NCBI RefSeq assembly: GCF_988242995.1
Contig: NZ_OZ547043.1
Length of the DNA stretch: 64,000 bases
Reading direction: 5' to 3' (one strand)
Part shown: piece by piece, positions 9,276 to 61,752 of the stretch
How positions within the stretch are numbered: the first letter of the stretch is position 1
Layout: each line of letters begins with the position of its first letter
Position numbers and translations under genes: made by a program
Notes under the pieces: generated by a model
What the model was told of the DNA's origin: nothing
Database searches by the model: none
What the model saw: only the letters and a program-made list of their open reading frames with translations

Positions 9276-10340
9276 ATGGTAACGTCCTGTACTGGACATG
9301 TTTTAGATAATCAGCGCGCCACCACTCGCGGAGATTTCTCCTCCGGTAGCAACTTCGTCACTTTGTATTTTCAACCTCATCCTTTCTTTTCATGTGTTAC
9401 CGACGCCGTAAACGGTGCGCGTAGCCGTTTTTCGGCATTTTATCCAAAAGCAAACTATGGCTTACAAGGAAGCCAACCCTCTGATGTTCGTGCGCATAAT
9501 CGCGCTGCCAACGGCGCGTGTGATGAATACAAACAACTCAAGGTGCTCTCCATGGGAAGACAAAAAGCAGTGATCAAAGCTCGTCGCGAGGCAAAACGTG
9601 TGCTGAGACGGGATTCGCGCAGCCATAAGCAGCGTGAAGAAGAATCGGTCACCTCGCTTGTGCAGATGAGCGGCGTAGAAGCCATTGGTATGGCCCGCGA
9701 CAGTCGCGATACCTCGCCCATCCTCGCGCGAAATGAAGCGCAATTGCACTATCTGAAGGCTATTGAGAGTAAGCAGCTGATATTCGCCACGGGCGAAGCC
9801 GGGTGCGGAAAAACCTGGATCAGCGCAGCAAAAGCGGCAGAGGCCCTGATACATAAGGATGTCGACAGGATTATCGTCACCCGTCCAGTTCTGCAAGCCG
9901 ATGAAGATCTTGGCTTCTTACCTGGAGATATCGCAGAAAAGTTTGCTCCCTATTTTCGTCCGGTCTACGACGTGCTGGTCCGGCGCTTAGGGGCTTCCTT
10001 TATGCAGTACTGCCTGCGACCGGAAATAGGGAAGGTGGAAATTGCGCCGTTCGCCTATATGCGTGGACGTACCTTTGAAAATGCAGTCGTCATTCTTGAC
10101 GAGGCGCAGAATGTGACTGCCGCGCAAATGAAAATGTTTTTAACCCGCCTCGGGGAGAACGTGACGGTTATCGTCAACGGTGATATCACGCAATGCGATT
10201 TGCCTCGCGGCGTGCGCTCCGGATTAAGTGACGCGCTGGAACGTTTCGAAGAAGATGAAATGGTCGGGATCGTCCGATTCGGTAAAGAGGATTGCGTACG
10301 TTCGGCACTTTGCCAACGTACGCTACATGCATACAGTTAA
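9276..10340 (+). CDS. phoH: PhoH, phosphate-starvation-inducible ATP-binding protein
   Basis: 354 aa, Walker A GEAGCGKT; matches recalled PhoH. Confidence 0.95.
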   Translation: MVTSCTGHVLDNQRATTRGDFSSGSNFVTLYFQPHPFFSCVTDAVNGARSRFSAFYPKANYGLQGSQPSDVRAHNRAANGACDEYKQLKVLSMGRQKAVIKARREAKRVLRRDSRSHKQREEESVTSLVQMSGVEAIGMARDSRDTSPILARNEAQLHYLKAIESKQLIFATGEAGCGKTWISAAKAAEALIHKDVDRIIVTRPVLQADEDLGFLPGDIAEKFAPYFRPVYDVLVRRLGASFMQYCLRPEIGKVEIAPFAYMRGRTFENAVVILDEAQNVTAAQMKMFLTRLGENVTVIVNGDITQCDLPRGVRSGLSDALERFEEDEMVGIVRFGKEDCVRSALCQRTLHAYS

Positions 10341-11674: not shown

Positions 11675-12385
11675 GTGCACAGAAAACCCCCAGCTAGGCT
11701 GGGGGTTCCGGAAAGCTTTCAGCTTTGAGCCAGTTATTAAAACCCCTTTTGATTTGTTAAAACACCTTGCGGTCTGGCAACTGCAAGTGTCAAACAAGAA
11801 ATCAAAAGGGGGTCCCAATGGGGGACGAAAAGAGCTTAGCGCACACCCGCTGGAACTGTAAATATCACATAGTTTTTGCGCCGAAATACCGAAGACTGGC
11901 GTTTTACGGAGAGAAGCGTAGGGCGATAGGCAGTATTTTGAGAAAGCTGTGTGAGTGGAAAAGCGTACGGATTCTGGAAGCAGAGTGCTGCGCAGATCAT
12001 ATCCATATGCTTGTGGAAATCCCACCCAAAATGAGCGTATCCGGCTTTATGGGATATCTGAAAGGGAAAAGCAGTCTGATGCTTTACGAGCAGTTTGGGG
12101 ATTTGAAATTCAAATACAGAAACAGGGAGTTCTGGTGCCGAGGGTACTATGTCGATACGGTGGGTAAGAACACGGCGAAGATACAGGACTACATAAAGCA
12201 CCAGCTTGAAGAGGATAAAATGGGAGAGCAGTTATCGATTCCCTATCCGGGCAGCCCGTTTACGGGCCGTAAGTAACGAAGTTGGATGCAAATGTCAGAT
12301 CGTGTGCGCCTGTTAGGGCGCGGCTGGTAACAGAGCCTTACAGGCGCATTTGAAAAACCTCCGGCTATGCCGGAGGATATTTATT
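11675..12385 (+). mobile_element. IS200-like insertion sequence (IS200/IS605 family), about 0.71 kb
   Basis: Single 152-aa HuH transposase; subterminal hairpins CCCCCAGC-TAG-GCTGGGGG (11687-11705) and CCTCCGGC-TAT-GCCGGAGG (12358-12376); no terminal inverted repeats; size as expected for IS200; exact ends approximate. Confidence 0.8.
11818..12276 (+). CDS. tnpA: IS200 transposase TnpA (Y1 HuH)
   Basis: 152 aa MGDEKSLAHTRWNCKYHIVFAPKYRR..HIHML..RGYYVDTVG; HuH motif and catalytic Tyr region; ORF track extends upstream to an in-frame start at 11767. Confidence 0.9.
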   Translation: MGDEKSLAHTRWNCKYHIVFAPKYRRLAFYGEKRRAIGSILRKLCEWKSVRILEAECCADHIHMLVEIPPKMSVSGFMGYLKGKSSLMLYEQFGDLKFKYRNREFWCRGYYVDTVGKNTAKIQDYIKHQLEEDKMGEQLSIPYPGSPFTGRK

Positions 12386-12571: not shown

Positions 12572-12659
12572 TGGCGGTGAGGGGGGGATTCGAACCCCCG
12601 ATACGTTGCCGTATACACACTTTCCAGGCGTGCTCCTTCAGCCACTCGGACACCTCACC
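12572..12659 (-). tRNA. serX: tRNA-Ser (serX type)
   Basis: 88 nt, sense strand GGTGAGGTGTCCGAGTGGCTGAAGGAGCACGCCTGGAAAGTGTGTATACGGCAACGTATCGGGGGTTCGAATCCCCCCCTCACCGCCA; long variable arm typical of tRNA-Ser, encoded CCA. Confidence 0.9.
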
Positions 12660-18204: not shown

Positions 18205-18958
18205 GATGAAACCCCGCTTTTTTTATTGATCGCACACCTGACAGCTGCCTCTAAAATAGAAGCACCAGAAGTACTGACAGATGTTGCACTGCTGTGTGTA
18301 GTAATAAATCAGCCCTAAATGGGTAAAATATAAAACTAATGGATTACATCTGATTTCAATCTAGCCATTACAAATCTTAAATCAAGTGTTAAACATGTAA
18401 CTAAATGTAACTCGTTATATTAAAATGTTAATCTTAAGGTTTTGTTAAGTTTAGAAATGATAGAAAAGTTGTACATTTGGTTTTTATTGCACAATTTTAA
18501 AAAATCATACAAATGGTGCTAACTTACTAATAATGCATATAAAAAATATTTCGGTGTAGTCCTTTCGTCATGTAAAACGTTGTTGTTTTTTCTTCACACC
18601 TCCGTGGACAATTTTTTACTGCAAAAAGACGAGGTTTGTCACGGCTTGTGCGCAAGACATATCGCAGCAATCAGCGACGGGCAAGAAGAATGGCTGTCTG
18701 GTGATTTTTGATTGCGGAAAACGGAGATTTAAAAGAAAACAAAATATTTTTTTGCGTAGATAACAGCGTATTTACGTGGGTTTTAATACTTTGGTATGAA
18801 CAAAAAAAGAAAAATACAACGCGCGGGTGAGTTATTAAAAATATTTCCGCAGACATACTTTCCATCGTAACGCAGCGTTAACAAAATACAGGTTGCGTTA
18901 ACAACCAAGTTGAAATGATTTAATTTCTTAAATGTACGACCAGGTCCAGGGTGACAAC
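18205..18958. promoter_or_regulatory. csgD-csgB divergent intergenic control region
   Basis: 754 bp, strongly AT-rich; contains GTTACATTTAGTTACATGTTTAACAC on the csgD strand (about 18386-18414), consistent with the OmpR/CpxR region of the csgD promoter. Confidence 0.8.
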
Positions 18959-28423: not shown

Positions 28424-28521
28424 GCCTGATGCGCTACGCTTATCAGGCCTACATCGCTCCTGCAACGTGTTGATTTTGCAAGATTTTGTAGGTCGGATAA
28501 GGCGTTCACGCCACATCTGGC
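28424..28521. repeat. Two REP elements (BIME-like) after opgH
   Basis: GCCTGATGCGCTACGCTTATCAGGC and GTAGGTCGGATAAGGCGTTCACGCCACATCTGGC. Confidence 0.6.
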
Positions 28522-37617: not shown

Positions 37618-37668
37618 TAATCTCTATGCTCCGGCTGAAGGGATGTTTTTGCCGGACACAAAGGATAA

Positions 37669-56152: not shown

Positions 56153-59100
56153 TTACTCAACAGGTTGCGGACGCGCAGGAGCGGCAGAGGCATGATGCGT
56201 TGCCGTATGACCACCTGCGGCACCTTTGCCTTCGAAAGCAAAAGTAGGGCGCTGCCAGTCACTGTGACGCGGTGCCTCCGGAACATATTCCGGTGCCGGA
56301 GCGCGTGTCATTGGCGCGGTAGCGTGGTTATGCTCAACGGTGACCTCAGGTTTAACCGCGGCTACCGTTTCAACTTCTGCTGCGACTTCAGCGACGACTG
56401 GCGCGGCAGGTTGAGCAACAACTTCAGGTTCAGCAACCACAACCTCAGCAGTTTCGGCAACTTCTTCAATATCAGCCGTCTCTTCCTGCGGTTCAACCAC
56501 CGGTTCTGCGTGTTCTGCAACTTCCTGGGCTACGGCAACATCAGACTCGGTAATCACCTGCGGCTGTTCAGTTACCGCGGCGGCAATCACTTCAGGATGC
56601 GTAGTTTCAACCACTTCAGGTTGCGGTTCGGCAACCTGAACGGGGGCTTCTACAACTTCAGCCACTTCTTCAACAACCGGTGCGCTAACAACAGGTTCGA
56701 CAGCGGCGGCGACAGGGACCTCAGTCACCATCGGCTGCACTTGTACTTCTTCCTGTTCGCGCTGCTCTTCGACCTGTACATCTTGCGGACGTACAATTGG
56801 ATAGCGGATCCATACTTTGCCAGAGGCCAGTTCCGGAGATGCGCACGCTACGGTCAACGGCATTGGCGATTGGGTTGGATAACGCTCGTCACGATAGCGA
56901 CGACGACGCTGACCACTCACGCGCAGGTGACGAGGCGAGCGGCGAGAACGACGCGGCATGCCACCGTTGTCACGGTTATCGGCATTGTTCTCTTCTTGCT
57001 GTTCTGGTGCAGCTTGCGCTACGACTGGCAGCGGGACTTTCACCAGTTCTGTGCGTGGAGCTGGCGCTTCCTGAACAATTGGTTCGGCAGCGACAGTTTC
57101 TTCAACCACCGGTGCGACTACCGCCTCTTCGGCTACGCTTTGCTCGTAACGCACTTTCTGATTGAGCTGACGCTGTTTACGACGCGGCTGAACCGGACGT
57201 ACACGTTCTTCCTGTTCGGTTTCCTGAACAGATTGCTCTTCAACATTCAGCGCCTTCGCTTCTTGTTGCGCCTGACGTTTATCATCGTTACGGCGGCGGC
57301 TACGTTCACGACGCGGCGCTTGCTGCTCGTCGGTGGTACGTGCTTTTTCCGTTACCTCAGCCTGCTGACGGCTCTCACGCGTCTCGGCAGTCTGCTGCTG
57401 TGCCTGGCGACGATTACGACGGTTTTCTTCGCGATTATCGCTGCCTTCAGTACGTTCACTACGGGTGTCGCGGCGCTCATTACGGTCACGGCGGTTGTTC
57501 TGACGAGGCTTGCGACGATCCTGTTGACGTTCCGGTTTCGCTTCTGCTTTCGGTGCTGGTTGCTCGGTCGGTTTGGTTTCTTCACCACCGCTGAACAGCG
57601 CTTTCAGTGCGCCGAAGAAACGGCTTAACAGCCCAGGTTGTGCAGGAGCTGCTGGTGTTGCCGGTGCAGCTTTAGGTGCTGGGGCTACGACAGGCGCGGC
57701 AGGTTCAGCTGGGGTTGGTGCTGGCGGCACATCCGGCATGGCAAAGGTAGCCAGCGCAGGTTGTTCCGGACGCTTACGTTCAGCGAACTCTTCTTCAGAC
57801 GGCAGCGCCATCGCTTCTTCATGCAGCTTCGGCAGCATGTAGCTTAAGGTTGGGGTTTCTTCCCCTTTGCGAACGCGCAGCACATGGTAGTGCGGGGTTT
57901 CCATCTGATCGTTTGGCACAATCACACAGCGCACGCCGTCCTGACGAGTTTCAATCGCATTCACTGCAGAACGTTTTTCATTCAGCAGATAAGAAGCGAT
58001 TGGCACAGGAACAATGGCGTGAACTTCCTGGGTGTTCTCTTTCAGCGCTTCTTCTTCGATCAGACGCAGAATAGAGAGCGACAGCGATTCGTTGTCACGC
58101 ACGGTACCGGTACCGGAGCAGCGCGGGCAGACGTGATGGCTGGATTCACCCAGTGATGGGCTCAGGCGCTGACGGGACATTTCCAGCAGGCCAAAGCGAG
58201 AAATATGGCTGATTTGAATACGCGCACGGTCCTGACGCACCGCTTCACGCAGACGGTTTTCTACCGCACGCTGGTGGCGTACTGGCGTCATGTCGATGAA
58301 GTCGATAACAATCAGGCCGCCGAGGTCACGCAGGCGCAGCTGACGAGCAATCTCATCGGCAGCTTCGAGGTTGGTGTTAAACGCGGTTTCTTCAATATCG
58401 CCGCCGCGGGTCGCGCGTGCGGAGTTGATGTCGATGGCGGTTAACGCTTCGGTGCTGTCGATAACAATGGAACCACCGGATGGCAGACGAACTTCACGCT
58501 GGAAGGCGGACTCAATCTGTGACTCGATCTGGTAGTGGCTGAACAGCGGGATCTCGCCGGTGTACAGTTTGATTTTGCTGCTGAAATCCGGGCGACCTAA
58601 TGCAGCGATATGCTGACGTGCCAGTTCGAGCACTTTCGGGTTATCGATAAGGATTTCGCCGATATCCTGACGTAAGTAATCGCGGAATGCGCGAACGATG
58701 ACGTTGCTCTCCTGATGAATCAGGAATGGAGCAGGGCGGCTTTCAGCGGCTTTTTTGATGGCTTCCCAGTGTTTCAGACGGAAGCTTAAATCCCATTGCA
58801 GCGCCTCAGCAGATTTGCCGACGCCAGCGGTGCGCACGATAAGCCCCATGCCTTCCGGCAGTTCAAGGCTCGCCAGTGCTTCTTTTAATTCGGTACGGTC
58901 GTCGCCTTCGATACGGCGAGAAATGCCACCCGCGCGCGGGTTGTTCGGCATCAGAACCAGATAGCTACCCGCCAGACTGATAAAGGTGGTTAATGCCGCG
59001 CCTTTGTTGCCGCGCTCTTCTTTATCGATCTGAACAATGACTTCCTGACCTTCACGCAACACATCTTTAATGTTGGGACGACCATGAGCACTGTAGTTAG

Positions 59101-59338
59101 CAGGGAAATATTCGCGGGCAATTTCTTTTAGTGGGAGGAAACCGTGACGTTCAGCGCCGTAATCAACAAAAGCAGCTTCCAGACTCGGTTCAATGCGGGT
59201 GATTTTACCTTTGTAGATGTTTGCCTTTTTCTGCTCGTGCCCTGGACTTTCAATATCCAGGTCATACAGACGCTGCCCATCTACAAGGGCAACGCGCAAC
59301 TCTTCCTGCTGAGTTGCGTTGATTAACATTCTTTTCAT
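56153..59338 (-). CDS. rne: RNase E
   Basis: 1061 aa; N-terminal S1/catalytic domain; Arg-rich and acidic/Pro-rich low-complexity C-terminal scaffold. Confidence 0.97.
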
Positions 59339-59699
59339 CGTAACTTACTCATTATTCTTACATTGACGACTAAGCTGCGGGCAAAGTAACGCCTTTCCGG
59401 GTGTGAACCGATGGCCTCGTGTCTAGTCGCGTCGCCAACCTCACGGTTATCGTCAGCTCAAAGAGGCGCAGAGTGTCGGTTGCCCGTTTTTCATGCGGAA
59501 AAACAGCGCAATTATCAAAGAAACAGACTGGGTATTACTCTCCAGAAATATTTCCATCTACCGGTAAGGACTGCAACCCGCAGCCCGCTAACTGCCTGAA
59601 AGATCAATACGTCTTACGCCATTGCTGCGTGGATGATCGGTCGGGCAAAATGGGTTATTCCGTAAAATTTCTTGTTTTAACAAGGATGGACACGGAAAC
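59339..59699 (-). promoter_or_regulatory. rne 5' leader (autoregulatory UTR) and promoter region
   Basis: Long untranslated region upstream of rne ATG; known to mediate RNase E autoregulation; exact transcription start not determined here. Confidence 0.55.
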
Positions 59700-59793
59700 G
59701 GCCTCATTATTCCACTGCAAGCCTTGTTATAGCAAGATGACTTTTACCATTTATCACCCGCTTACTCACAGTTTTTTCACTTCTTGCTGGTGA
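59473..59793 (+). CDS. yceQ: YceQ-like ORF antisense to the rne leader (doubtful gene)
   Basis: Open frame only; overlaps rne 5' UTR on opposite strand; likely non-coding. Confidence 0.25.
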
Positions 59794-59910
59794 TTGGTTT
59801 AATAACCATCAATAAAGTGATCACGTAGTGAAGTAATAAGGTGCAAAACTAAATATAAGCATAGAAAAATGAGTGGCGCGAATCCTGTTGGCTAATTAGA
59901 ATCGCCCACC

Positions 59911-60870
59911 ATGAAAACAGAGACTCCATCCGTAAAAATTGTTGCTATCACCGCTGACGAAGCGGGGCAACGTATCGATAACTTTTTGCGTACCCAATTG
60001 AAAGGCGTACCAAAAAGTATGATTTACCGTATTTTGCGTAAAGGCGAAGTGCGGGTGAACAAAAAACGTATTAAGCCTGAATATAAACTCGAAGCGGGTG
60101 ATGAGGTGCGTATCCCACCGGTTCGCGTTGCTGAACGGGAAGAAGAGGCGGTTTCGCCACATCTGCAAAAGGTGGCGGCGCTGGCGGACGTCATCTTATA
60201 TGAAGATGACCATATCCTGGTGCTGAATAAACCTTCCGGTACGGCGGTACATGGCGGTAGTGGTTTAAGCTTCGGCGTTATCGAAGGTTTGCGGGCGTTG
60301 CGCCCGGAAGCGCGGTTCCTTGAACTGGTTCATCGTCTCGACCGGGACACTTCAGGTGTGTTGCTGGTAGCGAAAAAACGCTCGGCGTTGCGTTCTCTGC
60401 ATGAGCAATTACGTGAAAAAGGGATGCAAAAAGATTACCTGGCGCTGGTGCGCGGTCAGTGGCAGTCGCATGTGAAGAGCGTTCAAGCGCCGTTATTGAA
60501 AAATATTCTGCAAAGCGGCGAACGTATCGTGCGTGTCAGTCAGGAAGGCAAACCGTCGGAAACACGCTTTAAAGTGGAAGAACGCTATGCTTTTGCCACC
60601 CTGGTGCGTTGTAGCCCGGTAACAGGGCGTACTCATCAGATCCGTGTGCATACACAGTATGCGGGTCATCCGATTGCCTTTGACGATCGCTACGGTGACC
60701 GTGAATTTGACAGACAGCTCACTGAAGCCGGCACGGGATTAAATCGTCTGTTCCTGCACGCCGCAGCGTTGAAGTTTACCCATCCGGGGACCGGAGAGGT
60801 GATGCGTATCGAAGCGCCGATGGATGATGGTTTGAAGCGTTGTTTGCAAAAACTGCGTAACGCGCGCTAA
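59911..60870 (+). CDS. rluC: RluC 23S rRNA pseudouridine synthase
   Basis: 319 aa, S4 domain plus RluA-family catalytic motif HRLDRDTSG. Confidence 0.95.
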   Translation: MKTETPSVKIVAITADEAGQRIDNFLRTQLKGVPKSMIYRILRKGEVRVNKKRIKPEYKLEAGDEVRIPPVRVAEREEEAVSPHLQKVAALADVILYEDDHILVLNKPSGTAVHGGSGLSFGVIEGLRALRPEARFLELVHRLDRDTSGVLLVAKKRSALRSLHEQLREKGMQKDYLALVRGQWQSHVKSVQAPLLKNILQSGERIVRVSQEGKPSETRFKVEERYAFATLVRCSPVTGRTHQIRVHTQYAGHPIAFDDRYGDREFDRQLTEAGTGLNRLFLHAAALKFTHPGTGEVMRIEAPMDDGLKRCLQKLRNAR

Positions 60871-60981: not shown

Positions 60982-61566
60982 CTATCCCATCAGCGGGTTT
61001 TTCCCTTCACGACGTAACATCTGACACAGCGCGATTAGCGGTAAACCAACCAGCGTGTTAGGATCACGCCCCTCTAAACGCTCAAACAGCGTAATGCCAA
61101 ATCCTTCACTCTTAAAGCTACCCGCGCAGTGCAGGGGATGCTCCTTACGCACGTAATTATCAATCTCCGCCTCGCTCAGGTGACGGAAATGGACGTCAAA
61201 AGGCTCCACTTCTGTTTGCAGATGCCCATTCGCCGAATTAAACAACGCCAGTCCAGTATAGAAGGTGACGATATTGCCGCTGGCTTTACGTAATTGCAGA
61301 CGGGCATTTTCTTCCGTTAACGGTTTACCGGTGATTTCGCCATCAAGAACACATACCTGGTCTGAACCAATAATTAAATGATCCGGATAACGTGACGCCA
61401 GAGATTGCGCTTTTTCTTGTGCCAGTCGAAGCACCAACTGTCGCGGTGATTCGTCGCTGCGTGGGGTTTCGTCGACCTCGGGTGCTGCACATTCAAAAGA
61501 GATTTGCAGTTTTTCCAGAAGAGCGCGACGCCAGGGCGAGGTGGAGGCTAAAATAAGTTTAGGCAT
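60982..61566 (-). CDS. yceF: YceF Maf-like nucleotide pyrophosphatase
   Basis: 194 aa from ATG at 61564-61566 ([14 protein letters not shown]). Confidence 0.9.
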
Positions 61567-61569
61567 ATT

Positions 61570-61724
61570 TTTTTCCATCAGATATAGCGTATTGATGATA
61601 GCCATTTTAAACTATGCGCTTCGTTTTGCAGGTTGATGTTCGTTATCAGCACTGAACGAAAATAAAGCAGTAACCCGCAATGTGTGCGAATTATTGGCAA
61701 AAGGCAACCACAGGCTGCCTTTTT
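61570..61724 (+). ncRNA. sraB: Probable SraB small RNA locus upstream of yceD
   Basis: Recalled to lie in the yceF-yceD spacer; plus-strand hairpin GGCAACC..GGCTGCC followed by T5 at about 61703-61724 would be its terminator; 5' end not determined. Confidence 0.3.
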
Positions 61725-61752
61725 CTTTGACTCTATGACGTTACAAAGTTAA

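Follow-up and report, generated by a model that had tools for sequence, protein, structure and literature searches.

The 572-bp spacer that separates rne from rluC in this Escherichia coli sequence is very probably a control region shared by the two divergent genes, with no gene of its own. The open frame annotated there in K-12 as yceQ (b1085) can, with strong confidence, be described as a chance reading frame lying antisense to the rne leader, and as an artefact of annotation. The conserved secondary structure of that leader, which includes the hp2 stem-loop and the hp3 domain, is backed by compensatory base changes. Throughout this text, the window is the whole stretch of 64,000 nucleotides of contig NZ_OZ547043.1 (assembly GCF_988242995.1) that was analysed, with positions counted from its first letter; adding 1085029 to a window position gives the K-12 coordinate.

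The rne-rluC spacer and the structured rne leader

The coding sequence of RNase E (rne, 1061 aa) occupies 56153..59338 on the minus strand, and that of the 23S rRNA pseudouridine synthase RluC (319 aa), whose product carries the Pfam PseudoU_synth_2 and S4 domains, occupies 59911..60870 on the plus strand, both as determined from open reading frames and RefSeq annotation. With the start-codon end of rne at 59338, the spacer runs from 59339 to 59910 and measures exactly 572 bp, so that the length originally predicted for it is borne out to the base by the reading frame coordinates. The spacer is 100% identical to that of E. coli O157:H7 chromosomes, differs from the K-12 spacer by at most a few bases, and was found in 5425 of 5426 complete E. 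coli genomes. Records labelled as plasmids account for 5 of the 5439 places that match it. A wider set of 80 Enterobacterales loci was collected by way of the conserved RNase E N-terminus, and wherever a locus reaches far enough, rluC and rne are divergent.

The minus strand of the spacer carries a match to the Rfam family RF00040 (rne5) at 59363..59699, covering model positions 1-333 of 333 with 260.1 bits (E = 3.7e-82) against a gathering score of 180 bits, and this match abuts the rne start at 59338 on the same strand. The gathering score was also reached in 15 of 20 diverse Enterobacterales loci. The rne promoter P1, described below, predicts a +1 near 59699, 361 nt from the AUG, and the 5' untranslated leader, counted from the P1 start and ending one base short of the AUG, therefore spans 59339..59699 (361 nt, minus strand) by the Rfam match and the predicted promoter together. 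This length agrees with the published value of 361 nt (PMC8200214). The rne mRNA would start near 59699, and its first 361 nt are predicted to fold as hp1, hp2 and a multi-branched hp3.

The 5'-terminal stem-loop hp1 (59658..59697, minus strand, RNA nt 3-42) is present both in the minimum-free-energy fold and in the Rfam consensus structure, and its sequence varies between species. The stem-loop hp2 (59592..59648, minus strand, RNA nt 52-108 of the fold) is conserved; its apical part GCAGCAAUGGCGUAAGACGU (59609-59628) shows 98-99% identity across 78 species, and pairs of its outer stem covary (CG:31 UA:14; GC:38 AU:5). The hp3 domain (59375..59583, minus strand) is multi-branched and closed by a long-range 11-bp stem formed by GGGCUGCGGGU and GCCCGCAGCU. 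This closing stem is recovered as an RNAalifold helix pairing columns 180-190 with 447-457, is 97.4% paired, and has 6 of its 11 pairs changed on both sides. The inner helices of hp3 covary as well (for example UA:31 CG:17), and together with the long-range stem they show 85-97% identity across species. Identity is about 90% in the rne translation-initiation region and only 49-58% at the apex of one branch of hp3 (59509-59560).

An RNAalifold consensus of 49 Enterobacterales leaders contains 40 pairs, in which 98.2% of cells are standard pairs. Two-sided changes were found at 18 of the 40 pairs, as compared with 8.7±1.6 in shuffles, none of 500 of which reached 18; the structure was derived from the same 49-leader alignment on which covariation was tested, which biases these counts in its favour, and the independent Rfam model agrees with it. 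When the partners were slid by 1-3 columns, only 3-8 two-sided pairs were left. For its composition, the leader has an unremarkable minimum free energy (z = -0.62 against shuffles), and the support for structure is therefore placed on covariation and the Rfam model, not on folding energy. The family match, a promoter that yields a 361-nt leader, and covariation over 49 species bear out the part of the original prediction that placed a structured rne 5' UTR in the spacer.

The rne leader reportedly confers RNase E-dependent feedback (Jain and Belasco in 1995, Diwa in 2000, Schuck in 2009), and the last two of these studies are said to have identified hp2 as the sensor to which RNase E binds. 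A published summary of the mechanism likewise has RNase E binding hp2 and thereby hastening decay of rne mRNA (PMC10760160). Under this published model, binding of RNase E to hp2 would speed the decay of its own message, and RNase E synthesis would track demand.

Several further RNA features lie elsewhere in the window. The small RNA SraB (RF00077, 210 bits) was found at 61560-61728 on the plus strand, between yceF and yceD, and is likewise present in E. albertii and Citrobacter loci. Rfam matches above the gathering score also mark the antisense RNA Ysr251 (10142-10335, minus strand), STnc490 (11685-11808, plus strand), a tRNA (12575-12659, minus strand), ES056 (18260-18351, minus strand), ES036, also called CssrF (28445-28487, minus strand), and the PyrC leader (37618-37667, minus strand).

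Divergent promoters and natural insertions

A strict scan of 59200..60050 returned a single sigma-70-like site, the rne promoter P1 (59706..59735, minus strand), which consists of TTGCTA, an 18-nt spacer and an extended -10 of the form TG-n-AATAAT. Its -10 (CATTATT on the plus strand) and its -35 (ATAGCAAG) are invariant or nearly so in the 33 species shown, with a per-block identity of about 0.92 for the hexamers. This extended -10 sigma-70 promoter, read from 59735 to 59706, is predicted to drive rne. Ow et al. reportedly described three rne promoters in 2002, two of them (p2 and p3) further upstream. A relaxed scan gave one further candidate for an rne promoter on the minus strand, with TATATT at 59857..59852, and this candidate is not conserved in other genera. 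Just upstream of P1 lies a double DnaA box, TTATCACCC gc TTACTCACA (59749..59770). Its conservation is confined to Enterobacteriaceae, where Escherichia, Citrobacter, Enterobacter, Phytobacter and genera related to them keep the motif; Erwiniaceae and Yersiniaceae do not conserve it. A published DnaA ChIP-seq peak at K-12 coordinate 1144772, labelled '(yceQ) rne', contains the double DnaA box motif (PMC11317965).

At the other end of the spacer, within its final 40 bp, a relaxed scan identified an rluC promoter at 59873..59902 on the plus strand, made up of a GTGGCG box (59873-59878), an 18-nt spacer and a TAGAAT -10 (59897..59902). The -10 ends 8 nt before the rluC ATG at 59911, and the intervening CGCCCACC is GC-rich and contains no Shine-Dalgarno sequence. 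This arrangement is held across the order; TTAGAAT starts 14-15 nt before the rluC ATG in 73 of 74 Enterobacterales species, and the GTGGCG box precedes TTAGAAT by exactly 23 nt in 71 of 73, while the 12-14 nt between the box and the -10 vary freely across species. Transcription of rluC would start at the AUG or within 2 nt of it, which would give a leaderless or near-leaderless mRNA, and rluC is in fact listed as a known leaderless E. coli gene (PMC8794815, PMC8921622). The divergent rluC promoter that had been proposed for the spacer is confirmed by the position of TAGAAT 8 nt from the ATG, by the lack of a Shine-Dalgarno sequence between them, and by this published listing.

The -35 region of the rluC promoter holds a AGTGGCGC(T)A box (59872-59881) that is invariant, yet matches the sigma-70 -35 consensus at only 3 of 6 positions. 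By inspection, the GTGGCGC box fits none of the sigma-54, sigma-32, sigma-24 or sigma-28 consensus motifs. The distance from the P1 -35 to the rluC -10 (59736-59896) is about 166 bp, and it is 164-168 bp in most of 73 species. This distance is near-constant, yet the sequence at 59779-59850 within it is only 21-57% identical across species. The exceptions are Serratia with 144 bp, Pectobacterium with 179 bp, and Hafnia, Brenneria and one Pantoea with 195-200 bp, which amounts to deviations of about 12, 22 or 30 bp. One speculative proposal, which we consider unlikely as a whole, is that the AGTGGCGC(T)A box and the steady distance of about 166 bp could mark a factor site or a shared divergent-promoter element that couples RNase E and RluC expression and that, separately, yceQ could be a young protein found only in Escherichia.

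An RpoS SELEX peak that is listed beside yceQ was also considered as a possible feature of the spacer. The peak was set aside, as its source flags it as lying inside rluC (PMC5493296). Read in what we presume to be the earlier K-12 numbering, its coordinate is within the coding sequence of rluC and outside the spacer.

Natural insertions mark which parts of the spacer can be interrupted. In E. coli O121 strain 201805972, a copy of ISEc11 sits at 59774-59776, where it truncates the 3' end of the yceQ frame and leaves P1 and the DnaA boxes intact. In E. coli ECSD228, IS1 has duplicated a 9-bp target at 59852-59860, where it sits immediately upstream of the core promoter of rluC. These two natural insertions show that E. 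coli does not require the sequence upstream of about 59776.

The rne leader itself is interrupted by a repeat of 108-128 nt in Pseudocitrobacter, several Citrobacter, Pluralibacter, Kluyvera, Erwinia persicina and one metagenome-assembled genome. The repeat lies at a site equivalent to 59557 in seven loci, after 59656 in one and after 59536 in another. Its core, CTCACCCCAG..ACTTAC...GTAAG...CTGGG, resembles what we take to be the ERIC/IRU consensus, and each E. coli genome has 1-4 unannotated places that match the Citrobacter copy at 60-90% identity. The three interrupted leaders that were tested, all with the repeat at the site equivalent to 59557, stay above the rne5 gathering threshold.

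The yceQ frame opposite the leader

The plus strand of the spacer contains an open frame of 124 codons that starts with GTG at 59419 and ends at 59793, and that we judge to be spurious. The K-12 annotation of yceQ uses a later GTG at 59473 and has 106 codons (59473..59793, plus strand; K-12 1144502..1144822), and the K-12 record names the product 'DUF2655 domain-containing protein'. An antisense frame of 106-124 codons had been predicted here, and it is present as ORF 59419..59793, opposite the rne5 match at 59363..59699 on the minus strand. In the RefSeq genomes listed, PGAP annotates no gene in the spacer, and the one feature found there is an IS1 transposase. Of 5000 dinucleotide shuffles, 0.5% had a plus-strand frame that reached 124 codons or more and 2% had one that reached 106 or more; the median of the longest frame was 53 codons. 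As the frame is longer than composition predicts, it is a real feature of the sequence, though this is not in itself evidence of a gene.

This excess of length is one of the points in favour of the view that yceQ is a genuine but very young protein gene of 106 aa, restricted to Escherichia, which arose de novo and is translated weakly or conditionally. The frame also has a Shine-Dalgarno-like AAGAGG 6 nt before the K-12 GTG at 59473, the window, K-12 and E. albertii all have it whole, and its K-12 annotation as a DUF2655 protein still stands. We nevertheless regard such a gene as very improbable indeed, since its frame, its substitutions and the published experiments all speak against it. When the K-12 frame was projected through a 79-sequence alignment of the spacer, indels of non-3n length and/or in-frame stops broke it in 75 of the 78 other species, even where nucleotide identity is 75-90%. 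Among these are the nearest genera, in which the frame is lost at 85-90% identity; over Citrobacter, Enterobacter and Lelliottia the range is 82-90%. Outside Escherichia the frame survives only in a single sequence, from Phytobacter, in which four 1-nt indels compensate for one another. Variation within E. coli points the same way, as variants from E. coli and Shigella switch frame partway, the ISEc11 insertion described above disrupts the frame in a clinical O121 strain, and the record labelled E. coli SCPM-O-B-8794 has lost the stop codon (TGA to CGA at 59791), which lengthens the frame by a few codons. The same record has a cluster of substitutions at 59806-59829.

The substitutions in the yceQ frame show no bias towards the third codon position, with 49/44/50 variable columns and 436/234/382 pairwise substitutions at positions 1, 2 and 3, respectively. 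In the control, the first 600 nt of rne from the same genomes, the corresponding substitutions are 140/21/1597. Searches of the yceQ product returned no match in Pfam-A at E <= 0.01 and none in NCBIfam at E <= 1, so that the domain named in the K-12 record has no matching model in the current families. A search of 5.8 billion proteins found only 30 relatives, all from Enterobacteriaceae, with erratic lengths (61-156 aa) and query coverage down to 30%. The aligned relatives have only one 27-residue stretch of peptide in common (59563-59646), and this stretch is what results when the near-invariant hp2 and long-range stem are translated in antisense. In addition, strict and relaxed scans gave no promoter-like site on the plus strand upstream of yceQ.

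Published experiments lead to the same reading of yceQ as a non-coding frame. Price et al. found no ribosome-profiling reads for yceQ under three growth conditions, reported that its ORF is disrupted in some strains, recovered transposon insertions in yceQ only in the orientation able to drive rne, and concluded that no protein is encoded (10.1101/038851). These insertions lie within the frame and are viable. Goodall et al. came to the same conclusion by TraDIS, namely that yceQ is not essential, as did Rousset et al. by CRISPRi, in which only targeting of the strand that blocks rne took effect. The Keio and PEC collections formerly counted yceQ among the essential genes, an apparent essentiality that belongs to the promoter and leader of rne. 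The protein conservation of yceQ and its essentiality are thus, in all likelihood, only apparent, both being properties of the leader and promoter of rne on the opposite strand. The original prediction, which held yceQ to be probably an artefact of the leader, agrees with the loss of the frame in 75 of 78 species, the absence of a coding pattern in its substitutions and the lack of a current family model. It had named conservation and ribosome footprints as the observations that would speak for a translated yceQ, and both came out negative, the former in the conservation test made here and the latter in the published ribosome profiling.

Transcription of the plus strand without translation was also weighed, in which 59419..59793 would be a non-coding antisense RNA (an 'excludon') that pairs with the rne leader and modulates rne through RNase III or transcriptional interference. 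In ExcludonFinder, rne-yceQ is one of 16 divergent overlaps that occur in 50% or more of 58 E. coli RNA-seq samples. This entry was not accepted as a sign of antisense transcription: the rne 5' UTR overlaps the yceQ annotation, which suffices for the call, and the call does not imply that the plus strand is transcribed. A weak promoter-like site inside the frame on the plus strand (59488..59515, 4+4 matches) would be compatible with such an RNA, but the leader is at its least conserved where this site lies (49-58% identity), the strict scan gave no plus-strand promoter at all, and CRISPRi guides that would block plus-strand transcription caused no fitness defect. An antisense RNA of this kind is therefore highly unlikely. 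Together, a young Escherichia-only protein and an antisense transcript make up a small residue of uncertainty beside the reading of yceQ as a chance frame, and neither of them is positively supported.

Meaning and comparison with known systems

The rne leader and the spurious nature of yceQ are already known in every essential respect. The leader is a classic feedback device that sets the global capacity for mRNA decay, and nothing new is added on the leader itself. For annotation, yceQ (b1085) is best treated as a non-gene, and DUF2655 serves as an example of how a conserved structured RNA can yield a convincing-looking protein family on its antisense strand. Two small additions may be of use to annotators, namely the order-wide architecture of the leaderless rluC promoter and the tolerance of the leader for an ERIC-like mobile repeat.

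When compared with the characterised rne5 element (RF00040), the leader described here agrees in its position and strand directly upstream of rne, in its length of 361 nt, and in its conserved hp2 and hp3 with covariation. There is no substantive difference between them, and the window carries the E. coli sequence that defined the element. The rluC message belongs with the leaderless E. coli mRNAs rhlB, rluC, racR, hprR, dicA, as well as cohE, a list in which rluC itself stands, and to this the present comparison adds that the spacing from promoter to AUG is conserved across Enterobacterales. Finally, the open frame is the same ORF as yceQ/b1085, with the same coordinates in the window. Orientation-biased transposon or CRISPRi effects of the kind seen at yceQ, which arise from polar or promoter effects on an adjacent essential gene, are likewise found at rnc/era, psrO/pnp and sroG/ribB. 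Those three pairs are cases in which the affected locus lies upstream in an operon, whereas yceQ differs from them in being antisense to a 5' UTR.
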